The translations under genes and the position numbers were made by a program. A DNA stretch of 43,761 bases from NCBI GenBank assembly GCA_964641635.1, contig CAZXMD010000001.1:1-43761 (forward strand), given 5' to 3'. Each line of letters opens with the position of its first letter. The stretch's first letter is position 1. The DNA comes from an uncultured Candidatus Finniella sp. (GTDB lineage: Bacteria; Pseudomonadota; Alphaproteobacteria; Paracaedibacterales; VGCI01). Shown piece after piece: positions 9,830-37,808 of the stretch. The notes beneath the pieces are model-generated. The model was not told the origin of the DNA and searched no databases. It saw only the letters and a list, made by a program, of their open reading frames with translations.

Positions 9830-10669
9830 TTATGCAATGGGAAAAACGCGTTTAACGGTTGCTGCGACCTGCTCATAGGCCGTATTCATCAAGGGGTCGC
9901 CGTGGGCCGTCAAGAGATGACCAAAGGTCATCGTAGTGAGAAGTCTGTGAAAATCCGCAGCACTTGTGTGAGTTGCCCCAAGCCAAATGGGCGTGATGTT
10001 TGCTGGTTTTACAAGCCCTTGACCTTGAAATGATTTGGCCGTTTCAGGACTATAGAACTTATCCGTGGATGTGATGTTTTGAATGCTGTCACAGGAAATC
10101 AGGATGCCTCCTTCACGGTCGATATGCAAAATGCCCTCTGGCAACCTAGATGTTTCAAAAACAAAAAGAGAACAACCCGAGAAGGGCATGGCCCCTTCTG
10201 GTGTTAAGTCTCGATCGGACTTCAAGCCGCTCTCATAGGTCATACCCTTTAACGTCCAAAGCTGAGCGGTTGGGTATTGATTTCGGTAAAAGGCATCATC
10301 CCGACCATGGAATGCCCCAATTCGGACAATATGACTAACGCTTCCTAAGAGTTCTAGTTTTTTAAGACCTTCTTCGTTTAACCTAACGGTATTGACTAAG
10401 GTTAACTCAGAGCCATTGCGAACGATGACCATGTTGCGGCTTGTTTGAATGTCAACACCTTCATGGTGAATCTTGTTGGTTCCTGTTACAAAAAAGACAT
10501 CTGGAAATATTTCACGTATATCATCATGAGGCCAAGCGGGGGTAAATTGAATTGATTGTGAGGAAGAAGCCATAGAACTTGCTCCTGGTTGAGTTGTGTT
10601 TTCACCAAAAGAGGGGAATGTGCAAAAAAATATTACGAGAAGAGGAACAGGGTACTTTAAAAAAAGCAT
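9830..10669 (-). CDS. Secreted hypothetical protein, possibly a degenerate metallo-beta-lactamase fold (DUF4336-like)
   Basis: Signal-like N-terminus MLFLKYPVPLLVIFFCTFPSFG. The central pattern NMVIVRNGSELTLVNTVRLNEEGLKKLELLGSVSHIVRIGAFHGRDDAFY resembles MBL-fold families that lack the HxHxDH motif; this family call is from memory only. Start set at ATG 10669 because the track start 10696 lies 4 nt from the tRNA-Lys 3' end. Confidence 0.6.
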   Translation of the reverse strand: MLFLKYPVPLLVIFFCTFPSFGENTTQPGASSMASSSQSIQFTPAWPHDDIREIFPDVFFVTGTNKIHHEGVDIQTSRNMVIVRNGSELTLVNTVRLNEEGLKKLELLGSVSHIVRIGAFHGRDDAFYRNQYPTAQLWTLKGMTYESGLKSDRDLTPEGAMPFSGCSLFVFETSRLPEGILHIDREGGILISCDSIQNITSTDKFYSPETAKSFQGQGLVKPANITPIWLGATHTSAADFHRLLTTMTFGHLLTAHGDPLMNTAYEQVAATVKRVFPIA

Positions 10670-10699
10670 CAGCGATGTACCTTTATTGATTAGCAATCT

Positions 10700-10775
10700 T
10701 GGTGGGCCCTGAAGGATTCGAACCTTCGACCCCCTGATTAAAAGTCAGATGCTCTACCAACTGAGCTAAGGGCCC
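10700..10775 (-). tRNA. tRNA-Lys (anticodon UUU)
   Basis: The reverse complement reads GGGCCCTTAGCTCAGTTGGTAGAGCATCTGACTTTTAATCAGGGGGTCGAAGGTTCGAATCCTTCAGGGCCCACCA. It has a 7-bp acceptor stem (GGGCCCT/AGGGCCC), the anticodon loop CTTTTAA, the T-arm GGTTCGAATCC and an encoded CCA. 76 nt. Confidence 0.92.
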
Positions 10776-10797
10776 CACGATCGCTACAATAGTCCCT

Positions 10798-10826
10798 TTA
10801 TAAGATGATTATTGCTGTATGGTCAA
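10798..10826 (-). promoter_or_regulatory. Candidate sigma70-type promoter of tRNA-Lys
   Basis: On the minus strand: TTGACC (10826..10821), a 17-nt spacer, then TTATAA (10803..10798). This ends 22 nt upstream of the mature tRNA 5' end. Sequence match only. Confidence 0.4.
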
Positions 10827-10920
10827 TGAAAAAGGCACGCGTCTGAGCGTCAAATTTAGGCGCTTCCCTAAATCCCTTATAAAAAATAAAGAAAACCTCA
10901 TATTCTAGAGTGGCCAAGCC

Positions 10921-11724
10921 TTAGAAAAATTTCAAGACCTCATTGCGAAGAACGACAACCACTTCGATCAGAATAAGCAGGATAATGGTCAATTCGAGGC
11001 GCGAAGAGTGGCGGTGGTTCAGTTCGCTTGACAAAATATCATAAAGTTCGTGGATCACCCCTAAACGTCGGTTGAGAATGTCGAGGCGAGTTGCAATATC
11101 CATATACTCTGAGGCCATCAGATAGTAGGGCTCATAGCGAGGTCTGCGCCAAAAGAATTCCGGTGTATCCAAGATATCACTATGAAGGTTGATGGAGTTC
11201 CGCTCTGCAAACAAGGCGCCAATCTTCTTAGACAGTTTTTTACGCGACATATAGATCTTGCCTTTTCTGGCAAGCTCTTCAGGTAAATGACGGGTTTTTT
11301 CGATGGTGCGACTGACGGAAGCTTCAAAACACTCTAACTTCACAGATTGAGAGAGCCCATGAGATAAGGAAAGCTTAATCAATATATCCTCAGATTCAAG
11401 GATGATTTCATCATCTTCTTCTTTAATTATTGTCGTATCGCCATAATGAAACGTTGATTGATCATGGGTTGGAAACGTTAGGGGGTAAACAACGTAAGGG
11501 CGCAACTCTGATAAGATTTGATGTTCTTCTTCCTCTTCTAACCCCCAAAAAATGGCGCATCCATAAGGAAAAAAGAAAGCATCACCACTGGAGCCGTCTT
11601 CATTTTCTTTACGGACATGGATCACATTGTCGTAGAATTTCGGCTCCCGCCCTATTTCCCGCAGGAACTTAGCCATTTCGTCGATATCATAGATATCACC
11701 GACACAATAATAAGAACATCTCAT
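10921..11724 (-). CDS. RMD1/RMND1-family protein (DUF155, YagE-type)
   Basis: 267 aa. It starts with the family-typical C-x-Y-x-x-x-x-x-Y-D-(I/L) region (MRCSYYCVGDIYDIDEMAKFL), has FFFPYGCAIFWGL, and ends in one C-terminal TM helix (LELTIILLILIEVVVVL). Recognised from memory of COG1723/DUF155. Confidence 0.7.
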   Translation of the reverse strand: MRCSYYCVGDIYDIDEMAKFLREIGREPKFYDNVIHVRKENEDGSSGDAFFFPYGCAIFWGLEEEEEHQILSELRPYVVYPLTFPTHDQSTFHYGDTTIIKEEDDEIILESEDILIKLSLSHGLSQSVKLECFEASVSRTIEKTRHLPEELARKGKIYMSRKKLSKKIGALFAERNSINLHSDILDTPEFFWRRPRYEPYYLMASEYMDIATRLDILNRRLGVIHELYDILSSELNHRHSSRLELTIILLILIEVVVVLRNEVLKFF

Positions 11725-20035: not shown

Positions 20036-21067
20036 ATGCTCGCTCCTAACCTTTCAGATAATACATCAGAGCGGCCCTATACGCTCCACTCCCTTGATAT
20101 TTTGGGAAGCCCCTTGCAAGGGAAGTTTGAACGCATCACCCGGTTGGCCAGAAATTTATTTGAAGTCCCGGTCGCTTTCATCAGTTTAAATGATGACCAA
20201 CGTCTTTTATTTAAATCTCTCCTTGGAACAGATATTGTTGACATATCCCATGTCGAATCATTTTGCGAACATGTTTTTTTTACCGAAGAAATTTTTACGG
20301 TTCCAGAAACATCTATGGATGAACGGTTCTCTAAAAATCCTTACGTAACCGGAGAGCCTCACATTCGCTTTTATGCAGGCTATCCAATTCAATTGAACCA
20401 CCAGAAACTGGGAACAATTTCTATTGTGGATCATAAACCACGGTATTTTCCTCCCGACCAACTTTTATTACTGAAAGATGTTGCCGCTCTTATTGAAACA
20501 GAAATACAAAATTTTGCCATATCCTCAGATAAAGGCAAACTCGCCTTAGATCTTGACCAAGCCCGCCTCGCTTCTATGATTGATCCTTTAACCAGCCTAT
20601 GGAACCGCCAAGGGATATATAATATCTTAAAACACCGTATGGACGAATACCTCTTAAATGGCTCAAGCTTCGCCGTCGCCATTCTTGATATTGATAATTT
20701 TAAAATTATTAATGACACTTACGGTCACGAATCGGGAGACCAAACCTTAAAGGCCATCGCTAATATACTCATTGAGGGATGCCGCGAAACCGATGCCGTT
20801 GGAAGATGGGGCGGCGAAGAGTTCCTAATTCTCATCAATGAACCAAACATCAATTACGTAGCTGAAATTGCAGAGAGAATCCGGTCAACCATTGAAACAC
20901 AAAAAGTTTCTCTTCTTTTCGATCCGCCCTTAGATGTCACCGTCACCATTGGCCTTTCAAGTATTGCACCCTGGACATACCCAACCTTGGAAGAGATGAT
21001 CAACAAAGCTGACCAAGCCCTTTATCAAGGCAAAAGAGGGGGGCGGAACCGAGTTGTAAAAGTGTAA
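20036..21067 (+). CDS. GAF-domain diguanylate cyclase (GGDEF)
   Basis: N-terminal GAF (ITRLARNLFEVPVAFISLND...IRFYAGYPI...GTISIVDHKPR). C-terminal GGDEF domain with DPLTSLWNR, DIDNFKIINDTYGH, active site GGEEF and an RETD I-site 5 residues upstream. Confidence 0.9.
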   Translation: MLAPNLSDNTSERPYTLHSLDILGSPLQGKFERITRLARNLFEVPVAFISLNDDQRLLFKSLLGTDIVDISHVESFCEHVFFTEEIFTVPETSMDERFSKNPYVTGEPHIRFYAGYPIQLNHQKLGTISIVDHKPRYFPPDQLLLLKDVAALIETEIQNFAISSDKGKLALDLDQARLASMIDPLTSLWNRQGIYNILKHRMDEYLLNGSSFAVAILDIDNFKIINDTYGHESGDQTLKAIANILIEGCRETDAVGRWGGEEFLILINEPNINYVAEIAERIRSTIETQKVSLLFDPPLDVTVTIGLSSIAPWTYPTLEEMINKADQALYQGKRGGRNRVVKV

Positions 21068-29111: not shown

Positions 29112-30152
29112 TTAAAATAGTTTTTTCGCTTCAGCAAAAATCCTATTAACGGCTTCTGCATCATGTACTTTTTTAGCGGGCTCCCTGTTAAGATCTTTCG
29201 TCAATTTACACATTTCAGTTAATTGAGCTTCAAATGTAGATAGTGTTTTGGCTTTAACTTTATCTTTAGTCCCTTTAACCTTTTCCTGAATCCTTGTAAG
29301 GACAGCCTGACAAGATGTACCATCCAACGTACCTGTTGCAGATGAAGCTGTGCTAAACTGTTCGGGCTTATACTCAATATCATGCTCAGGATCGTTGCGA
29401 ATTTCAGGCTTGTCAAAGCCTGTATTCTTTTGTAGCCTCGCCAAAAGCTCATGGGCCCCAAAAGCATGTTCTGCTAACGGTTCCAGCAAACCTATCCGTT
29501 TTTCGAGGGCACCTATTAATTTTTCGAGACCTTCGATCTTTTCTTTCATATGTTTAACTTTAATGCCTTTCCCCTCGTTTAAGGCGAACATCTCCTCTGC
29601 CGTTATTCCTTTTCCGCCAGCGCCAGTAACATGATGCTCTGATGGTTTCTTTTCCAGGTGGGATGATGTTGTTGGTAAGGGCTGAGTTGGCCGCTGCGGA
29701 GCCTTCGTTGATGGTTGCTTTTTCAATTCGGAAGGCCCTACTGTAGACGGGGTTTTTTCTAGCGGTGGCCTTGAAAATGCCATTGCCTGCCTTCTTTGCA
29801 TTGGAGGTTTTGACCCCTGTTTTTCTAGCTGGGTTTGCTCCTCATCGCCTTTGCTTTTTTCTGGTTCCACAGGTAAAGGCTGTGGCTGGGGTTTCTGGGG
29901 AAGGCCACGTCTCGAAGGAGGAGTTGGCCTTGTAGTCTGCGCGGAGCCTTGTGGCTTGGCCTTCATACAGGCATCTATGGAACCGAGATTGCTAGCGCAA
30001 TTGGTTTTACATATCTCCTGTTTTGTCGCATCAGCGCAGGAAACATTGGTACACTCTTTCAGACACCTTACAAGCCCCCACTCGTCTCCCTGAACGCTTG
30101 CCTGTAAACACACCACACTGATAGATGCCAAAAGTAATTTTTTCGCTGACAT
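29112..30152 (-). CDS. Secreted hypothetical protein: N-terminal 6-Cys module, Pro-rich linker, helical C-terminal domain
   Basis: Signal peptide MSAKKLLLASISVVCLQASVQG, then C-x3-C-x4-C-x8-C-x3-C-x9-C, then a P/Q/T/K-rich segment (residues ~66-170), then a helical region (KIEGLEKLIGALEKRIGLLEPL). Confidence 0.7.
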   Translation of the reverse strand: MSAKKLLLASISVVCLQASVQGDEWGLVRCLKECTNVSCADATKQEICKTNCASNLGSIDACMKAKPQGSAQTTRPTPPSRRGLPQKPQPQPLPVEPEKSKGDEEQTQLEKQGSKPPMQRRQAMAFSRPPLEKTPSTVGPSELKKQPSTKAPQRPTQPLPTTSSHLEKKPSEHHVTGAGGKGITAEEMFALNEGKGIKVKHMKEKIEGLEKLIGALEKRIGLLEPLAEHAFGAHELLARLQKNTGFDKPEIRNDPEHDIEYKPEQFSTASSATGTLDGTSCQAVLTRIQEKVKGTKDKVKAKTLSTFEAQLTEMCKLTKDLNREPAKKVHDAEAVNRIFAEAKKLF

Positions 30153-30220: not shown

Positions 30221-30823
30221 CTACCAGTTTGTTTTATGTTTGCTCGGACTGTAGCTTGTCCCTGTTTGATGGTCAGAGCGAAATCCCGCCTCATCTCCCC
30301 AATGGATCTCTGCCTTTTCTGCTTTAGCTCGCGCAGCAATCTTGGGATAGGTGTCTTCTAGCCAGACTTTTACGGCTTTATCTTGACGCTCATAGGCACG
30401 ACGAAGAGGTTTTTGAGGCGTAAAGCCCCATCTTTTTAGATAATTGCCAACACTACGAATCGATAATTTTATAGAAAATCGACGTTCAATCAGAGTGCCA
30501 ACGGCCTCGCGGGTCCAAAGTGCAAAAGGCATCTTAAGTTGGTCCGGACAGCGATCTTTGATCATGTTGACGATTGTCGCGCATTGATGCGGGGCGAGAA
30601 GCCTCTTATACATAGAGCGACGTCCGCGCTTCTTCTTTAGAATGGATCCTTCGCCTTGCTTCAGGTAGGCTGAAACCCAGTTGCTGACAGACACACGAGT
30701 AACTCCCAAAAGCTCAGCTGCAGCGGTTCGTGATTGCCCCCCGTCCAAAACCATTTTAATGGCTCTTAGCCTTATAGCTTCCTAGGCATCCGGACTCAGC
30801 TTACGGGTATCAACTAATTTCAT
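30221..30823 (-). pseudogene. IS630-family transposase remnant (premature TAG at codon 14, 3' half missing)
   Basis: From ATG 30823: MKLVDTRKLSPDA then TAG (30784..30782). The frame continues EAIRLRAIKMVLDGGQSRTAAAELLGVTRVSVSNWV... (HTH) ...WTREAVGTLIERRFSIKLSIRSVGNYLKRWGFTPQKP...IHWGDEAGF (first catalytic Asp region). It stops about 190 codons in, so the rest of the DDE domain is absent. Confidence 0.8.
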
Positions 30824-30883: not shown

Positions 30884-31216
30884 TTAAGCACAACGCAAAC
30901 TCAGCAATTGCTTATGGCGTGTATTGAGGTGCGCGAGCAACAGCTTATTATGTTTTTTAGCGGCAGACCCATTTGCATAGTCATACCCCGCTGAACGTAA
31001 TGTAATAAATTTAACTCCGTTCTCAATCAATCTTGCCATCAACTGCTCATCTACATAATCGGCCACAAAGCAACTAACTCCGGCGTACCCTATGGCTTTA
31101 TCTGCGCTTCTTAAAGTAAGCCTGTCCGATATAAAACAAAGTTCATGTTTCCCCTGATTAGCGTTGTTGATGTGCTTTTTTTCGAAGGACTTCGTGCTAT
31201 AAATAATAATTTTCAT
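30884..31216 (-). pseudogene. ldhA: D-lactate dehydrogenase (2-hydroxyacid dehydrogenase) N-terminal fragment
   Basis: MKIIIYSTKSFEKKHINNANQ...ELCFISDRLT...TADKA..GVSCFV.D......L...GVKFITLRSAGYD aligns by eye with the first ~90 residues of E. coli LdhA (MKLAVYSTKQYDKKYLQQVNE...). The remaining ~230 residues, including the NAD-binding domain, are missing and the tail diverges before the stop. Confidence 0.7.
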
Positions 31217-31506: not shown

Positions 31507-34500
31507 TTATTCTACTTTACTCCTTCTTTTTTGTGGTATATCAAAATAGAAAGTTGTGCCTTTATCAACCTCTGATTCAACCCATATTTTACCACCATAA
31601 TCCTCAACTATTTTTTTACAAATTGCCAACCCAATCCCCACACCTGTGTAGTCTTTCGATTTATTGAGCCTCCCAAACAACTTAAAGAGCTTTCCTTTAA
31701 AGTTCAGATCAATACCTATCCCATTATCCCTAACGAAAAATCTATACCCGGATTTATAAGTTTTAAAACCAATATGGATTTCAGGCTTTTGTTGATGTCT
31801 AAACTTGAGAGCATTAGAAATAATATTTTGAAATAAATGGTAAATTTTGAACTGATCTCCTATAATTGTCGGCAGTACATCATGGGTGATGGTGGCGTTA
31901 AACTCTTCGATAGAAGCTTTCAACTCCTCTATTATTCTTGTAATGAGAAATTCACAGTTCACGGACTCTATATTATGAGCTTCATTCGATATTTTGGCAT
32001 ATGAAAGTGTACTCTCGATCATTTTTTGCATTTGCTGAGAACCATCAAGGATATATTCAAGATATTTTCTACCTTCTTCATCGATTAAGTCTTTAAAACG
32101 CTCGGAAAATAGGGTAGAAAAGCTAAAAACAATTCGTGCAGGCTCCTGTAAATCATGCGAACAAATATGTGCAAAATTCTTAAGATCTTCATTCGCAATC
32201 TTTAATTTTTGAACTGTATTTTGCAGTTTTGCCTTTGAATTATAAACCTCCGTAACGTCTTGGTAACTACAAACGACATACCTCTCAGAGTTTTGACTTT
32301 CAAAAGTTACTTTTTGAATCACGTAAGTTCTTTGCTTTTGAGAAAGGAACCTTTGGCTTTTTCCTTGGAAAAAACCACATTCTAACGTTCTTTCGTTTTC
32401 TTTGATAACAATATCGGCTTCACGCTTTGAGTAAAGTTCTTGGGGAGTATGCCCGAGTAATTCTTTTTCAGTCTTAGAGAATTTTTCACAAAAAGCCTTA
32501 TTTACGATTACGAATCGATGGTGGTCATCCGACACACACATAGGGTCAGGAGATATGTCAATAACTGCCTTTAGAAAAGAAATTGCCGCCCGTTGACGGT
32601 CGGTTACATCGAAGATGAGAATAAAAAATCCTTTGGGTTCTAAGTTCTCCTTTATGTCAGGAATAAGGACGATTTCTTCATATTGAAGAATATTTGTTGA
32701 TAAAACGACTTTGTTGTCAAATTTCGTAACTTGGCCTGAGAGGACTTTATTGACATGGGGTTTTATAAATTCATACACTTTGTCTGAATCTAGTGATTTT
32801 AAAGAATGCCCCAGAAGCTTCTCTGATCCACCCTCTAACCATTCCATATATAATTTATTACTAAAGTGGTATTTTAGATTTCGATCAACATAAGCTATGC
32901 TAACGGGTAAAGTATCAAGAATTTCACGAAATTTTTGTTCGTTTTCCAGCGCTGACAGCTGTAATTTTTTGATGCGCGTCACGTCGGCAAAAGTAATAAT
33001 AACCCCTGAAGTTTTACCTTCTGATGTTCTATAAGCGCGGCATTTTCTCAAATACCAATTCTTTTCTTCCGTCTCAACTTCTTGCTCAATTGAGCTATTT
33101 GTTTCTAAAATCTTTTGGGCATCGCTCATCAAAGTCCCATCAATAAACCGCATGGTAATATCTTTAAGGGGACGGCCCAGATCAGAGTCTCTCAGATTAA
33201 ACATTTTAACAGCTTCAGGTGTAAACCGCTTGAGACGCAGCTTATGGTCTAAAAATATTGTCGCAATATCTGTACTTCTGAGTAAATTAACCAAATCATT
33301 ATTGGTTTTATTTTGTTCTTCTATTTTTTCCTGAAGTTCGGAATTAACAACAGTCAACTCTTCATTGAGAGACTGCAATTCTTCTTTAGATGTTTCCATT
33401 TCCTCATTTGTGGCTTGCAATTCCTCATTAACTGATATGATTTCCTCATTATAAATTTTAAGCTCTTCGTTCGACTCCTTCAGATCTTCAATCGTATTTT
33501 GTAAGTAAGCTCGTGCATCCTTCAACTCCCGCTCAAGGGTTTTGATCAATAAATTTCCCTTAAATCCCTTCTCTTGAATCTCAGGATTTTTGAATTTTTC
33601 CATCTCTTTGAAAGTCACAATAAAAAGATCATGACCAGGTGCTTTTTTAAGAATTGATATTTTAAATTCGACCCAGTACGGCTCTTTAAGAGCTTCTATA
33701 TAGGTGCTATCTATAACATAGTCTTTTTTACTTTGAAGGAGAGTTTGGAGCGCCTTTTTAATTTTTCCTCCTAAGCCCTCTCGTGCCATCATCAGCAAAT
33801 TTAGGCTGGGTGATCCCTCAGGAACTTTAAGATATTGGCCCGTAGGACCAAAGAAATATATGACTTCAAATTTAACATTGATGAGGACTGAAGTAGGAAC
33901 ATACTCTTCTAGAAGTTGCTGTTTTGCGCGTTCATAAAAAGTTCGCTGGGTTTGTGGTATGAGAAATTGAGAATGTGAAATTTGAGTGTTGCTCACTCCC
34001 TGGGAGTTGCTGATCTTAGAAGCAATTTTATCTCCTGAAGAAGATAAAATACGCTTAAATATATGATCTTTCTTGGACACAATCTCAAAAAGAGTATCTT
34101 CTCGATTAATAGTTTCTGAATTTCCTAAAAACAAATAACAGTTTTTCCTCAATGCGAAATGAAACAGCTTTATAATTTCCTTCTGGATCTCTGAGTCAAG
34201 GTAAATAAAGAGATTACGGCATGAAATAAGATCGAGTTTAGAAAATGGAATATCTCTCAAAAGATTATGGTGAATGAACAATATATGTTGCCGAACATCA
34301 TTTTTAACAACATAATTTTTCCCATTTTTATCAAAAAATTCTGCCAAACGTTCTGCCGATACATTGTTCTGGATATTACTGGGATAAATACCTTTACGAG
34401 CAATCTCAAGAGCCTCTTCATCAATATCTGTGGCAAAAATTTGTAGTTTCTTATTAATTTTTGCAAGGGAACATTGTTCCATTAATAAAATAGCAATGGA

Positions 34501-35481
34501 ATACGCTTCCTCACCTGTCGAACATCCAGGTATCCAAACTCGGAAGGGCGTCTCTGGATCTGTGATAAGGTTGGGATTTATCATTTCGGCAAGCGCTTCA
34601 AAGCATTTAGGATTACGAAAAAAACTGGTCATTCGAATTAGTAAATCCTTACGCAATTTGTTTGCTTCCGAAGGATGATTTTCCAAAAAGTGATAGTAAT
34701 CAGAGTAGCTATTAAGGTGGTTCGCCTCTATGCGTCTTTGAATCCGCCTCTTAATACTTGGTTTTTTATAAGAGGAAAAATCATCTTTTGTCTTTGTTTT
34801 TAAAAGATTTAAAATAAGGATGAGACCACTAGCATCTTTTTCATCTGCTCCAAAATCATAACTTTCTGCATCTATAATATGTTCTGTATTAAGAACAAGT
34901 TTGGCGCTATGTTTAATCAAAATATCAGGGATTTTCTCAACTGGCAGAACATGATCAGCCAGCCCCCTAGAGATAACATTTTGAGGCATGGTGCTAAATT
35001 CTGTGCTCGTGGGATCTTGAGCAATGACAAGACCACCATTGTCTTTAATTGCTTTACAACCTGCCCCACCATCATTACCCGTCCCTGAAAGAATGATGCC
35101 AATCGCATTCTGCTTTCTAGCCTCGGCTAATGAAGAGAAAAAAACATCAATTGTCGTTCTTATGCCTTTTACTTCTGGGGTGGTTTTGAGGTAAAGCATA
35201 CCACCTTTGATTTTTAAAAATTTGTTGGGAGATATAACGTAGACATGGTTAGGTTCTACCTGCACGCTTTCTTTAACTTCGATGACCTTCATAGGCGTAC
35301 AACGAGATAATATAAGAGAAGTAAGGCTTTCATGATGAGGAGCAAGATGTTGAACCATAACAAAAACCAACCCCGTATCTATCGGCAGTGAAGAAAGAAG
35401 TATCTTAAAACTCTCAAGCCCGCCTGCAGAGGCTCCAACGCCAACCACGATGGGTAGATTTCCAGAATTGCTCATTGCCAT
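31507..35481 (-). CDS. CheB methylesterase - CheR methyltransferase - coiled coil - PAS repeats - histidine kinase fusion protein
   Basis: 1324 aa. CheB domain (VGVGASAGGLES, VMVQHLAPHH, LSGTGNDGGAG). CheR domain (FFRNPKCFEAL, RVWIPGCSTGEEAYSIAILL, FCRNLFIYL-like CRNLFIYLD). NEE[LIM] heptad zipper. PAS-like segments. H-box FAHICSHDLQEPARIV. HATPase_c (FVRDNGIGID, GVGIGLAICKKIVEDYGGKIWVES). Confidence 0.9.
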   Translation of the reverse strand: MAMSNSGNLPIVVGVGASAGGLESFKILLSSLPIDTGLVFVMVQHLAPHHESLTSLILSRCTPMKVIEVKESVQVEPNHVYVISPNKFLKIKGGMLYLKTTPEVKGIRTTIDVFFSSLAEARKQNAIGIILSGTGNDGGAGCKAIKDNGGLVIAQDPTSTEFSTMPQNVISRGLADHVLPVEKIPDILIKHSAKLVLNTEHIIDAESYDFGADEKDASGLILILNLLKTKTKDDFSSYKKPSIKRRIQRRIEANHLNSYSDYYHFLENHPSEANKLRKDLLIRMTSFFRNPKCFEALAEMINPNLITDPETPFRVWIPGCSTGEEAYSIAILLMEQCSLAKINKKLQIFATDIDEEALEIARKGIYPSNIQNNVSAERLAEFFDKNGKNYVVKNDVRQHILFIHHNLLRDIPFSKLDLISCRNLFIYLDSEIQKEIIKLFHFALRKNCYLFLGNSETINREDTLFEIVSKKDHIFKRILSSSGDKIASKISNSQGVSNTQISHSQFLIPQTQRTFYERAKQQLLEEYVPTSVLINVKFEVIYFFGPTGQYLKVPEGSPSLNLLMMAREGLGGKIKKALQTLLQSKKDYVIDSTYIEALKEPYWVEFKISILKKAPGHDLFIVTFKEMEKFKNPEIQEKGFKGNLLIKTLERELKDARAYLQNTIEDLKESNEELKIYNEEIISVNEELQATNEEMETSKEELQSLNEELTVVNSELQEKIEEQNKTNNDLVNLLRSTDIATIFLDHKLRLKRFTPEAVKMFNLRDSDLGRPLKDITMRFIDGTLMSDAQKILETNSSIEQEVETEEKNWYLRKCRAYRTSEGKTSGVIITFADVTRIKKLQLSALENEQKFREILDTLPVSIAYVDRNLKYHFSNKLYMEWLEGGSEKLLGHSLKSLDSDKVYEFIKPHVNKVLSGQVTKFDNKVVLSTNILQYEEIVLIPDIKENLEPKGFFILIFDVTDRQRAAISFLKAVIDISPDPMCVSDDHHRFVIVNKAFCEKFSKTEKELLGHTPQELYSKREADIVIKENERTLECGFFQGKSQRFLSQKQRTYVIQKVTFESQNSERYVVCSYQDVTEVYNSKAKLQNTVQKLKIANEDLKNFAHICSHDLQEPARIVFSFSTLFSERFKDLIDEEGRKYLEYILDGSQQMQKMIESTLSYAKISNEAHNIESVNCEFLITRIIEELKASIEEFNATITHDVLPTIIGDQFKIYHLFQNIISNALKFRHQQKPEIHIGFKTYKSGYRFFVRDNGIGIDLNFKGKLFKLFGRLNKSKDYTGVGIGLAICKKIVEDYGGKIWVESEVDKGTTFYFDIPQKRRSKVE

Positions 35482-35565
35482 ACCTCCTCACAAGAGACTT
35501 TTGCTTAGTCTCTTTTAAAATTATTACCCTCACAGGTTTTTTTAATTTGTTGTTTTATGTAATTA

Positions 35566-36351
35566 TTAACGTCCAACTGAGCCCTTTAAATCTTTATTTA
35601 TTGGTTGACTCTGGGTCAGTTCGGGGGTCGTTGAGTTGAGTCTGGGAAGGACGACAACAGAAGACCAGTAATGAATAAGCGACTGGATTTGACTTTTAAA
35701 ATGGTCAAGGTCGCCTGACTTACAAATATAGCCACTGGCATGCTTCCTATAAACGTCAATCATTTCATCTCTTTTTAAGCTATTCGTAATAACTATAACA
35801 GGAATATCTTGAATTCTTGAATCTCGTTTTATCTCTTTAAGAACCATATGCCCATCTATCTTTGGGATATTAAGATCAAGAATAATAATATCAGCTCGTG
35901 CAAATAGGGGGGTATGCTGGGTTCCGCGCAAGAGTTCTAAAGCTTGCTGACCATCATGAACAGCATAAACATTGCTTGGGTTGGAGGAAGTTCCTATAAA
36001 TTTTCTAATGATAAACTCGTCGGCTGGATTATCTTCTACCAGTAAAATATTTATTTCTGCATGGTTTACTATTGAAATGGCGCCTAAATCCAAAAATTTT
36101 GCAGTTAATTGAGCATCATAATTAAAGTCTTGGAAGAAGAAATCAGGAGAGACTTTAAAAATCTGACTTAGTTTATATAAAACTTCGACAGATGTCCTAT
36201 TTATCCCCCGTTCATAATTTTCAACTTGGGGAATAGAAACTTCTAATTTTTGGGCCAAATCAGAAAGTGTCATGGCCGCCCTTTTCCGACGATCTTTTAT
36301 TTTTTTACCAATATGCTCGCTCAAAGGCAAAAAAATCTTCATATGGGACAC
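35566..36351 (-). CDS. XRE-family HTH + C-terminal receiver-domain response regulator
   Basis: The N-terminus RKRAAMTLSDLAQKLEVSIPQVENYERGINRTSVEVLYKLSQIFKVSPDFFF is an HTH_3/XRE motif. The C-terminal REC domain has INILLVEDNPAD, DIIILDLNIPKIDG (phospho-acceptor Asp), PVIVITNS and GYICKS. It lies 84 nt upstream of the kinase on the same strand. Confidence 0.85.
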   Translation of the reverse strand: MSHMKIFLPLSEHIGKKIKDRRKRAAMTLSDLAQKLEVSIPQVENYERGINRTSVEVLYKLSQIFKVSPDFFFQDFNYDAQLTAKFLDLGAISIVNHAEINILLVEDNPADEFIIRKFIGTSSNPSNVYAVHDGQQALELLRGTQHTPLFARADIIILDLNIPKIDGHMVLKEIKRDSRIQDIPVIVITNSLKRDEMIDVYRKHASGYICKSGDLDHFKSQIQSLIHYWSSVVVLPRLNSTTPELTQSQPINKDLKGSVGR

Positions 36352-36484
36352 CTTCCAAAAAGAAAAGAATGATAAAAGGCAGCAAAATCTTAATAAATTT
36401 CGGTTTTTTTTACATTCAATTTGAATATTAGCCCCTTTGGCTAAAAAAGCAATGTCCTTATCTGATCATAGGAGCCCCTTTAGA

Positions 36485-37329
36485 GAGTTCTATTGCAAAG
36501 TTGAAAGATTTTGCTAGAGTTCTCCCTATTAATCTTAAGAAGGGGCCGTTATATGCAACCACAAGACTTCAAGTGCAGACAATTCCTATCAACCATAATC
36601 CTTCAATGCATGAGATGGTACTTGAGGTATCACACCAGTTATAGGAATTTGGAAGAGATGATGATTGAGCGAGGGGTTGAGGTAGACCACACAACTGTTT
36701 ATCGTTGGGTCCAACAATATGCCCCTGAATTTGAAAAGAGAATTAGATGGTATACAAGGGGTCGGGCAGCCTCTTAGAGAGTAGACGAGACTTATATCAA
36801 GGTCAAAGGCAAATGGAAGTATCTCTATAGAGCCGTTGACAAACATGGTAACACCCTAGATTTTATGCTTTTCTCCAAGCGTAATTATACCTCTGCCCTA
36901 CGCTTCTTCAGGCAAGTCTTAGCTTCAACAAGACAAGCACCGGAAAAGATTACGACTGACAAGCACTCCCCTTATAATAGGGCTCTTAACAAGTTAAAGC
37001 AGAAAGGAGAGATAAAGGTAGATCTCGAACACCGACAACAAAAATACCTGAACAACATTATTAAGCAGGATCACAGACGTATAAAACGTATAGTAATGCC
37101 TATGATGGGTTTTAAAAGCTTGAACACTGCTAAGCGAACCATCAAGGATATAGAAGCCATGGCTATGATGACTAAGCAACAATGCGACATGTATGCAAGA
37201 ACTACCCCAAAACAGGTAAGATTTGTGAACCGCTTATTTCATATTTATACCTGAATTATGTCTAAAATTTGAAAAATCTTTAATCTCCCAGAGAATTTTA
37301 CCCGGCGCAAATAGTTGCAACACAACCCC
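36485..37329 (+). mobile_element. IS6-family insertion sequence (inactivated)
   Basis: ~845 bp unit with a single transposase frame. The imperfect terminal inverted repeats are GTTCTATTGCAAAG (36487..36500) and the reverse complement of 37313..37326, GTTGTGTTGCAACT (10/14 identical, both containing TTGCAA). The exact ends are uncertain, and no flanking 8-bp direct repeat was seen. Confidence 0.6.
36553..37254 (+). pseudogene. IS6-family transposase with single in-frame TAG (36775..36777)
   Basis: MQPQDFKCRQFLSTIILQCMRWYLRYHTSYRNLEEMMIERGVEVDHTTVYRWVQQYAPEF...RGRAAS then TAG, then RVDETYIKVKGKWKYLYRAVDKHGNTLDFMLFSKR...TTDKHSPYNRAL...KYLNNIIKQDHRRIKR. Both track ORFs (36511.. and 36865..) are in the same frame. 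The TAG sits where family members have the Trp of the conserved S-W-R-V-DETY motif. Confidence 0.85.
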
Positions 37330-37808
37330 TATAAGAAGGAATTTGCAATACGCCCATTACCTGGCGACTTAAAATTTTGTTTTTTCTCAAGAAATATAAT
37401 TTCTTCTTTCAAATGGCCGCGTGCAGCCTTTAAAAGTCTTTCTTTTAAATGGCGTGATGAACATCCCTGAGAAAAGAAAATATTGAGAAGAGTACTACTT
37501 GATAAATCTGATAGTTGCCAATCATCGCAAACAGCTTGAGGACAATATATTACAGGCTCAAGCTGAAGCGGTAGAGGAATAAATTCGTCTTGATAAAAGT
37601 TATTTTCCTTTATCCAAGCGCGATTTAAATACCACGCGGCTTTCTTCAAATCGTCAACAACGAAATTCTTATGACTTGCTTTTTCTATATACTTAACAGC
37701 ACATGCCAAATGATAACTTAAGTTCCAGTCTTCAATAACGTCAATTGATTGAATTGATTGACCTGTAATATTACGTTTGAGGAAATTAATGTAGGATACG
37801 TTAAGCAT
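37329..37808 (-). CDS. DUF3310-like protein (phage-associated family), apparently with a second degenerate repeat
   Basis: SIDVIEDWNLSYHLACAVKYIEKASHKNFVVDDLKKAAWYLNRAW fits the DUF3310 pattern (ID.I......f..gN.iKY..R...K....dL.KA..Yl). The stop codon (37331..37329) touches the IS6 right end. Confidence 0.6.
   Translation of the reverse strand: MLNVSYINFLKRNITGQSIQSIDVIEDWNLSYHLACAVKYIEKASHKNFVVDDLKKAAWYLNRAWIKENNFYQDEFIPLPLQLEPVIYCPQAVCDDWQLSDLSSSTLLNIFFSQGCSSRHLKERLLKAARGHLKEEIIFLEKKQNFKSPGNGRIANSFL

Follow-up and report, generated by a model that had tools for sequence, protein, structure and literature searches.

What do the enzymes of chemoreceptor adaptation act upon when they are fused to a histidine kinase and no chemoreceptor is encoded nearby? 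This question is raised by two adjacent genes in a 43,761-nucleotide stretch of DNA (the window) from an uncultured Candidatus Finniella sp. (assembly GCA_964641635.1, contig CAZXMD010000001.1, positions 1 to 43,761). One of the genes encodes a fusion of CheB- and CheR-type domains with PAS domains and a histidine kinase (HK), and the other encodes a response regulator in which an XRE-type helix-turn-helix (HTH) precedes a receiver domain (XRE::REC). We find that the pair is best explained as a cytoplasmic two-component system. The full chain of events that we propose comprises methylation by the kinase of a glutamate-rich helix on its own chain, a phosphorelay, and a transcriptional output through XRE::REC; from sequence analysis we give this chain a probability of about 0.5. 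The phosphorelay from kinase to XRE::REC, considered by itself, is likely, while self-methylation of the helix, considered by itself, is nearly an even matter that leans slightly toward doubt. A target on the enzymes' own chain would explain the absence of a nearby chemoreceptor.

The two open reading frames (ORFs) run in the same direction on the minus strand and are 84 nt apart, as reported in a preliminary description of this DNA:

35566..36351, minus strand: gene for the XRE-HTH::receiver response regulator (ORF of 261 aa from GTG 36351)
35482..35565, minus strand: intergenic gap of 84 nt, holding an 8-bp inverted repeat (35492-35514) and the ribosome-binding site (RBS) GAGGAGG (35483-35489)
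31507..35481, minus strand: gene for the CheB-CheR fusion sensor histidine kinase (ORF of 1324 aa)

Residues of both proteins are numbered here from these longer ORFs. The true starts are probably ATG 36342 for XRE::REC, which gives 258 aa with the RBS GGAAGG 8 nt upstream, and ATG 35475 for the kinase, which gives 1322 aa with GAGGAGG 7 nt upstream; both choices rest on RBS spacing and on agreement with the lengths of the deposited gene calls, and the deposited protein P0121 (258 aa) is 100% identical to XRE::REC. The length of 1324 aa given earlier for the kinase is thus correct for the ORF, and the protein itself is likely to be two residues shorter. The 4-kb frame had been called uninterrupted and it is, with every catalytic motif intact.

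Membership of the kinase in a very large annotated family of CheB/CheR fusions is not in doubt. Homologues were found at 94, 80, 79, 69, 54, 51 and 45% identity, of which the first four have full-length frames, and beyond these lies a very large family (at least 8000 scored candidates) in which many members are named 'CheB/CheR fusion protein'. The features of the kinase are as follows, with model statistics from an AlphaFold2 (AF2) prediction and its local confidence score (pLDDT) where no Pfam entry applies:

34921..35445, minus strand: CheB-type methylesterase/deamidase, aa 13-187, triad S18/H45/D137, without an N-terminal receiver
34069..34818, minus strand: CheR-type S-adenosylmethionine (SAM) methyltransferase, aa 222-471, with a basic alpha2 face (K239, K240, R246, R249, R250) and R289, D352, R422, N423 and Y427
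33601..33939, minus strand: unannotated PAS-like alpha/beta domain ahead of the helix, aa 515-627 (AF2 pLDDT ~75-87; no Pfam model matches)
33274..33558, minus strand: continuous 95-residue helix, aa 642-736, from the PAS-like domain to PAS_10 (AF2 pLDDT ~84-90)
33331..33477, minus strand: Glu-Glu heptad array, candidate methyl-accepting sites, aa 669-717 (ESNEELK IYNEEII SVNEELQ ATNEEME TSKEELQ SLNEELT VVNSELQ)
32977..33291, minus strand: PAS_10 domain, aa 731-835 (Pfam 6e-28)
32227..32976, minus strand: two more PAS domains, aa ~836-1085 (Pfam PAS_4 in three stretches, PAS and PAS_9)
31528..32181, minus strand: HisKA/HATPase_c transmitter, aa 1101-1318, with H1109 in SHDLQEP, G1 DNGIG and G2 GVGIGL

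Pfam matches were obtained to CheB_methylest (13-187, 2.5e-52), CheR_N (222-270, 7.7e-15), CheR (284-471, 1.2e-52) and PAS_10 (731-835, 6e-28) and, in the C-terminal half, to PAS_4/PAS/PAS_9 (969-1080), HisKA (1101-1166; 24 bits, slightly under the cut-off of 26.9) and HATPase_c (1208-1318). Several PAS-like segments had been noticed earlier, and we count four, including the unannotated one that precedes the helix. The CheB, CheR and HisKA/HATPase_c modules, recognized earlier from the letters alone, have all their catalytic residues. S18, H45 and D137 align to Ser164, His190 and Asp286 of CheB; R289, D352, R422-N423 and Y427 align to R98, D154, R230-N231 and Y235 of E. coli CheR; and the set of kinase motifs is complete, with H1109 in SHDLQEP, an N-box, and the G1 and G2 boxes. 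The CheB domain begins at residue 13, and there is no receiver domain anywhere on the kinase chain.

The active sites are conserved across the family as well. No member departs from the Ser and His of CheB, and 47 of 56, the window protein among them, have the Asp. In the other members of this alignment column 137 is His (6 of 56: P0052, P0056, P0061, P0071, P0090, P0107) or Glu (3 of 56: P0080, P0092, P0095), and these may form a sub-family with altered esterase chemistry. The catalytic and SAM-binding residues of CheR are invariant, as are R246 (equivalent to Arg53) and R250 of the alpha2 face, with R249 nearly so; this basic face of CheR recognizes the acidic methylation helix. AF2 places disordered linkers at 199-213, 481-513 and 630-643, which in the model could tether CheB and CheR within reach of the helix, although with a global confidence score (pTM) of 0.40 the inter-domain arrangement itself is unreliable, and a structure search found no solved structure covering the PAS-helix-PAS_10 core. 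The family has a near-invariant core, made up of the CheB esterase, the CheR methyltransferase, the PAS-like domain, one long helix, PAS_10 and flexible linkers.

Within this core the helix bears most directly on the question of the substrate. A heptad zipper had been pointed out in this region; the zipper is real, it is the Glu-Glu helix, and aa 670-709 form the best-conserved 40-residue window of the protein. The mean majority-residue frequency there is 0.83 among 112 distant members, compared with 0.78 around the CheR active site and 0.76 around the CheB active site. The window protein has six in-phase EE pairs, and between five and nine [EQ][EQ] pairs at an exact spacing of 7 residues are found in all of the 120 homologues listed (33-94% identity), whatever the output domain (HK, HisKA_3, GGDEF-EAL or LuxR). 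The helix, at -13 net over 49 aa, is more acidic than any other stretch of the kinase. Its in-phase run is 6, and when the helix was shuffled 20,000 times with its composition preserved, a run of even 5 never arose; by the same metric Tar and Tap each score 3. The run in Tar is made up of Q295, E302 and Q309 (L-E-E-T-A-A-S / M-E-Q-L-T-A-T; E. coli genome record). The heptad register of the helix equals that of Tar, with the Glu pair at b and c and small residues at f and g. Tar positions 295, 302 and 309 are the known MH1 methylation sites.

We then asked whether helix and enzymes are inherited together. Searched exhaustively, aa 640-840 (helix plus PAS_10) matched 16,425 clusters at 50% identity. 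Among the best matches about half seemed to be stand-alone helix-PAS_10 proteins without CheB or CheR, and this class was largely dismissed at the DNA level, which pointed to truncated gene calls: two sampled 'stand-alone' cases are split genes, with a CheB-CheR gene or pieces of CheR directly upstream. The DNA itself was therefore scored, which sidesteps gene-calling artefacts, at 80 metagenome loci picked by the helix-PAS_10 segment alone as those that scored highest out of more than 600 pattern matches. In 68 of these at least 2 kb of upstream sequence was available, and both CheB and CheR lie upstream on the same strand in 67; the remaining one has CheR only. The other 12 of the 80 loci run into contig ends. 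CheB, CheR and the helix share one reading frame in 65 of the 67 loci, and at least five in-phase pairs are retained in 77 of the 80. The Glu-Glu helix is almost never encoded without CheB and CheR.

A few apparent one-enzyme variants were also seen. At L105 (3660-5582) CheR alone apparently precedes the Glu-Glu helix, and among P0290, P0388, P0295, P0317 and P0375 three appear to have CheR only (helix 408-476) and two CheB only (helix 272-325). If genuine, such natural forms of the system with one enzyme each would be informative.

The strongest rival to self-methylation, which we nevertheless hold to be unlikely, is that the helix is purely structural, a signalling coiled coil or docking surface, and that CheB and CheR serve some other role such as SAM sensing. 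In favour of this, the helix links two PAS domains as one long connector, as many signalling helices do, and having Asn at every 'a' and Leu at every 'd' already amounts to a packing pattern. However, E686/687, E693/694, E700/701 and E707/708, together with the flanking Asn and Ser/Thr residues, are 96-100% conserved, so that heptad positions b, c and f vary no more than those of the core. With Asn taken as a and Leu as d, positions b, c and f would be solvent-exposed, and packing alone is then no explanation for invariant Glu pairs at b and c. A purely structural helix would also fit poorly with the catalytic residues of both enzymes, which vary hardly or not at all within the family, and with the co-inheritance of enzymes and helix in all but one of the loci that could be scored.

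Several observations nonetheless weigh against our interpretation of the helix, and some of them favour the structural alternative. No MCPsignal (PF00015) match to the kinase was found even at E = 10, so the helix is not homologous to the signalling domain of methyl-accepting chemotaxis proteins (MCPs), and an origin by such homology was rejected; the strict 10-mer MCP consensus [ASTG][ASTG]xx[EQ][EQ]xx[ASTG][ASTG] is likewise unmatched in the helix. The looser 6-mer EExx[ASTG][ST] does occur in the helix, at residues 686 and 693, but it is weak evidence on its own because the HK domain carries two matches as well. AF2 gives one single helix (642-736) and not an antiparallel hairpin. The extreme conservation of the helix could stem from some other partner or from a signalling role unrelated to methylation. 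The 80 loci are not a random sample of the ~16,000 clusters, and at one locus, L093, a helix-PAS_10 kinase follows a gene that ends in a receiver, with no CheB or CheR match in the 1.1 kb of upstream DNA available. Finally, methylation, phosphotransfer and DNA binding are predictions from sequence.

A second alternative is that the fused enzymes act in trans on MCPs encoded elsewhere, so that a PAS-regulated kinase would control receptor adaptation. The enzymes are true CheB and CheR homologues with intact active sites, and some carriers of the fusion are free-living, for example Nitrosococcus halophilus (P0017). The preliminary description had found no MCP, CheA or CheW in the window. This was borne out when E. 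coli Tar, Tap, CheW, CheZ, CheA, CheY, CheB and CheR were compared by tblastn with its full length: all matches were confined to the gene pair, and Tar, Tap, CheW, CheA and CheZ matched nothing past the ATPase domain of the kinase. This result covers one 43.8-kb contig, which leaves room for receptors encoded elsewhere and tells against our proposal. In the annotated neighbourhoods of homologues that we inspected, however, no MCP, CheA, CheW or other chemotaxis gene lies beside the fusion, and the CheB domain lacks the receiver through which feedback from CheA normally acts. Action in trans would moreover leave the invariant Glu-Glu helix that accompanies the enzymes unexplained, and we judge it quite unlikely. 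The earlier suggestion of a target other than an MCP is plausible in this light, as an acidic Glu-Glu helix lies in the invariant core and rarely occurs without CheB and CheR, although the target itself is inferred.

The second protein of the pair, the regulator, has the following domains:

36136..36300, minus strand: XRE/Cro-CI type helix-turn-helix, aa 18-72 (Pfam HTH_3, 9e-12)
35644..36048, minus strand: Rcp1/RcpA-type receiver, aa 102-236, with phospho-acceptor D159, K211 and a C-terminal YW..VLP tail (Pfam Response_reg, 2e-18)

The Response_reg match itself spans aa 102-222, and E106/D107, D159 (in IILDLNIP), T189 and K211 are all present, so that the order first described, an XRE HTH at the N-terminus and a complete receiver at the C-terminus, is upheld. 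In an alignment of 27 XRE::REC homologues D159 and K211 are invariant, and Y228, W229, L235 and P236 are invariant in the family alignment. The closest solved structures to the receiver are RcpA 1k68 (7e-25), Rcp1 1i3c and RcpB 1k66, with the C-terminal FW..LP tail aligned, and the HTH alone matches the ICEBs1 Xre-family regulator 7t8i. In the AF2 model aa 8-73 fold into a helical domain (pLDDT 94-98), and HTH and REC are separate domains, each predicted with confidence, on either side of a disordered or flexible linker. Both proteins match named kinases or regulators in NCBIfam below threshold only, so that neither is a known equivalog. Look-ups of proteins of the window by exact sequence returned no match. 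The XRE::REC family is small, with ~70 clusters among 5.8 billion proteins, and most of its named members come from Holosporales or from unclassified alphaproteobacterial metagenome-assembled genomes; the fusion is known mainly from Holosporales-like genomes, and it was in this lineage that the receiver gained its XRE HTH. Holosporales-like alphaproteobacteria are a lineage of protist endosymbionts. The window belongs here too: its SecD shares 65% identity with that of Ca. Paracaedibacter symbiosus, 64% with that of Ca. Finniella inopinata and 62% with that of a Paracaedibacteraceae metagenome-assembled genome, which marks the source as an uncultured alphaproteobacterium of this kind.

One XRE::REC homologue with 63% identity (L087, 460-1170) lies at the end of a 57-kb contig beside a prophage-like run of small ORFs, DnaD_N/HTH_36 and AAA_24, with no kinase nearby. 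A phage origin of XRE::REC was rejected, as the fusion is absent from the phage records searched.

The regulator has itself to be considered as a substrate. In a third alternative, the enzymes modify a non-MCP protein other than the kinase, foremost the partner regulator at E106/D107 and D111/E112. There is a precedent in Salmonella, where CheR-dependent methylation of PhoP at E8/D9 and E107/E108 is reported to affect phosphorylation and DNA binding (PMC8546571). The four acidic residues are nearly invariant in XRE::REC receivers, but this conservation is uninformative, since the acidic pocket is conserved in all receivers for phosphorylation chemistry. Members of the family with GGDEF-EAL outputs, furthermore, keep the same CheB-CheR-helix-PAS_10 core without any partner regulator, so that a family-wide target should sit inside the core. 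We regard modification of the regulator as hardly probable.

The pairing of kinase and regulator was followed among the homologues. An HTH_3 plus Response_reg gene lies directly upstream of the kinase on the same strand at L001 (79% kinase identity), L002-4 (69%) and L005-6 (54%), so that the adjacency does recur in other genomes and is seen in four differing flanking contexts (the window, L001, L002-4 and L005-6). Contigs of equal length among the homologues point to three further XRE::REC-kinase pairs. At L095 (45% kinase identity) there is no XRE::REC, and a stand-alone 155-aa receiver adjoins the kinase instead. Among more distant XRE::REC genes, some have a plain PAS kinase or a small one as neighbour (L007, L008) and others no kinase nearby (L009, L088, L089). 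The restriction of the pairing to the nearest sub-clade, at kinase identities of at least 54%, counts against a general coupling of the two genes. Because the adjacency is kept only in that sub-clade, the two-gene unit is real but young; the idea that it travels as a module is borne out by the four contexts and holds for the closest relatives only, as the plain receiver at L095 illustrates.

The pairing of this type of transmitter with this type of receiver is old. A scan of a genome collection with the XRE::REC alignment found only three full-length XRE::REC loci and was dominated by stand-alone Rcp1-like receivers of Actinobacteria, because the search patterns had been drawn from the receiver domain. 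Of 77 such stand-alone receiver loci (mostly Actinobacteria), 75 have an adjacent kinase whose dimerization/phosphotransfer and catalytic (DHp/CA) region is 34-44% identical to that of the window kinase, which indicates that transmitter and receiver are an old cognate pair type.

Sites on which the regulator might act were sought as well. A perfect palindrome, ATTCAAATTGAAT, is present at 36414-36426, ~72-84 nt upstream of the XRE::REC start, and is not conserved in L001, L002 or L005; the inverted repeat at 35492-35514, just before the kinase RBS, is not conserved at orthologous loci either. A search for a conserved operator at the orthologous loci found none, a further point against the proposed transcriptional output, and promoter and terminator scans gave background level only. 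The neighbourhoods of relatives offer a weak lead to the regulon in the form of small stress-protein genes. In L002-L004, DUF3309 and CsbD precede XRE::REC and DUF378 follows the kinase (L002 6985-7537 and 14590-14799). On a 15-kb plasmid of Ca. Paracaedibacter acanthamoebae (L097, NZ_CP008942.1), a full-length XRE::REC homologue at 10576-11268 adjoins a PAS kinase and a stand-alone receiver amid CsbD, DUF378, PA2169-like, DUF2383 and KGG small stress-type genes.

Taken together, these data suggest the following mechanism. The fused CheR would methyl-esterify Glu pairs of its own helix, in cis or across a dimer, and so neutralize charge, while the receiver-less CheB would strip methyl groups from the same helix. 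CheR and CheB would each prefer one signalling conformation of the helix, and the resulting level of charge and methylation would tune transmission from the PAS domains to the DHp/CA region, providing a built-in gain control and an adaptation memory. The logic of chemoreceptor adaptation would in this way be contained in one soluble polypeptide, and MCP, CheA and CheW would not be needed. The kinase would phosphorylate D159 of the adjacent XRE::REC; the phosphorylated Rcp1-type receiver would then dimerize and bring two XRE HTH domains onto an operator, as the C-terminal domain does in CI-type repressors of phages, and binding of XRE::REC would alter transcription.

Several known systems resemble this one in part. 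The Tar and Tsr receptors hold the CheR and CheB adaptation enzymes near by means of a C-terminal pentapeptide tether. The window protein resembles the adaptation system of these receptors in its homologous CheB (Ser-His-Asp) and CheR (SAM, Arg98, Tyr235, basic alpha2) modules, in the heptad-spaced Glu/Gln pairs on an acidic helix, in the b,c register of Tar 295/302/309, and in that the enzymes are kept near the candidate substrate, here by covalent fusion and flexible linkers. Unlike them, it lacks an MCP signalling domain, a four-helix hairpin, a CheA/CheW array and a receiver on CheB; it is soluble, it signals through a HisKA kinase that is part of its own chain and not through CheA, and methylation of its helix is predicted from its features. 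In the reported Salmonella case of PhoP, too, Glu/Asp pairs of a protein other than an MCP are the target of a CheR, but there a stand-alone CheR acts in trans, whereas here a conserved candidate target lies on the same polypeptide (PMC8546571).

The domain order CheB-CheR-PAS_10-PAS-HK is that of the KEGG class K13924, 'two-component system, chemotaxis family, CheB/CheR fusion protein', and JGI gives this name to close homologues; the class is an annotation label, however, and the XRE::REC partner is specific to the sub-clade of the window. In the literature searched, the coverage of which was incomplete, we found no mechanistic study of CheB-CheR fusions or of PAS_10, only the terms 'CheBR' and 'K13924' in lists of gene categories, and nothing useful on chemotaxis genes in Paracaedibacter; this agrees with the earlier statement that such fusions have no assigned substrate or output. 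The regulator is allied to Cph1-Rcp1 and to the bacteriophytochrome partners RcpA and RcpB by its receiver and FW..LP tail, and SHDLQEP-type transmitters adjoin such receivers in many phyla; those regulators are single-domain proteins without an N-terminal XRE HTH, and the sensor here is a CheBR/PAS module and not a phytochrome. With the CI/Cro (XRE) repressors of phages it has in common an HTH_3 at the N-terminus, followed by a flexible linker and then by a C-terminal domain with the potential for regulated dimerization, although this domain is a phosphorylatable receiver in place of a peptidase or oligomerization domain.

The remainder of the contig is chromosomal and of housekeeping character (SecD, FtsY, a MiaB-like enzyme, AsmA, HemY, AMP nucleosidase). 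The gene pair, with a GC content of 0.36 as compared with 0.46 for the remaining window, is housed in a low-GC island at ~31-40 kb. The island contains, in order, an HTH-only fragment of an IS630-like element, a short 2-hydroxyacid-dehydrogenase-like ORF, the gene pair, IS6 transposase fragments, a DUF3310-like ORF, CorA and a PDZ protein. Features next to the pair are:

30221-30754, minus strand: IS630-like transposase remnant, HTH domains only
30884-31216, minus strand: 2-hydroxyacid-dehydrogenase-like ORF, 110 aa, directly downstream of the kinase
36511-36777, plus strand: 88-aa ORF directly upstream of the pair, no Pfam match
36865-37254, plus strand: IS6/IS240 DDE transposase fragment
37329-37808, minus strand: DUF3310-like ORF, 159 aa, upstream of the pair past the IS6 fragments

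Such surroundings raise the question of whether the pair has any function in its host, and in a fourth alternative it would be a recently acquired, decaying passenger in an island ridden with insertion sequences. The low GC and the flanking IS630-like and IS6 transposase fragments accord with this, as do the differing flanks among relatives. The uninterrupted 4-kb frame with its intact catalytic motifs, and the full-length frames of the four closest homologues, argue otherwise. At orthologous loci the GC of the pair is 0.36-0.39 against 0.40-0.46 for the flanks, and it is lower in every one, so that low GC is a trait of the pair itself and not a sign of recent arrival. A decaying passenger is accordingly highly improbable. 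The preliminary description had spoken of AT-rich, apparently acquired DNA and of four gene wrecks around the pair; the low GC stands but is no evidence of recent arrival, and, of the wrecks, the IS630-like and IS6 transposase fragments hold, while the dehydrogenase-like piece does not. The 110-aa ORF has a full-length match of 62% identity to a 117-aa ORF at the equivalent position in L002-L004, extending through a C-terminal tail that is not dehydrogenase-like (the ORF is absent in L001 and L005), and thus looks like a conserved short ORF and not a fresh wreck. The argument from wrecks is therefore weaker than it was made out to be. The 88-aa ORF at 36511-36777 may be a second piece of the same IS6/IS240 transposase.

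The 159-aa DUF3310-like ORF is 46% identical to a gene of 145 aa lying after the dehydrogenase fragment in L002/L003 (L002 13466-13903). Since both the DUF3310-like and dehydrogenase-like ORFs recur in L002/L003, a rearranged four-gene neighbourhood is common to two lineages. A larger conserved cluster was rejected, as the dehydrogenase fragment and the DUF3310-like gene are shared with one other lineage only and lie outside the core unit. Two other genes of the contig deserve mention. An ORF of 346 aa at 29112-30152 (minus strand) has a signal-peptide-like N-terminus, a Cys-rich start and a long low-complexity region rich in Pro, Lys and Gln, with no Pfam match, and could be a secreted, effector-like endosymbiont protein. 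A GAF-GGDEF diguanylate cyclase gene is found at 20036-21067 (plus strand), which indicates that cyclic di-GMP (c-di-GMP) signalling is present in this organism.

In one respect the system is clearly of an already known kind, as the kinase belongs to an annotated family and follows ordinary two-component logic. Two elements appear to be new, as far as the literature searched shows: within the core of the family, a candidate methyl-accepting helix that is near-invariant and nearly always joined to the enzymes, and an XRE::Rcp1-type regulator as a lineage-restricted output. We tentatively extend the proposal, at somewhat less than even odds, to the whole CheB/CheR-fusion family, each member of which would be a one-polypeptide adaptation circuit with its own methyl-accepting helix, wired to transcription here through the lineage-restricted regulator. 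CheB/CheR fusions are annotated in thousands of genomes, and the helix supplies a testable substrate hypothesis for them at the level of single residues. If it is correct, reversible glutamate methylation would reach beyond chemotaxis receptors to cytoplasmic two-component and c-di-GMP signalling, and would provide adaptation or memory without any array. Methylation-based adaptation would then not be confined to chemoreceptor arrays, the helix-PAS_10 segment matching ~16,000 clusters (50% identity) with kinase, c-di-GMP or LuxR outputs. The XRE::Rcp1-type regulator, for its part, is a rare output-first architecture found mainly in protist endosymbionts, and would give the circuit a transcriptional read-out in a setting where regulatory systems are scarce.

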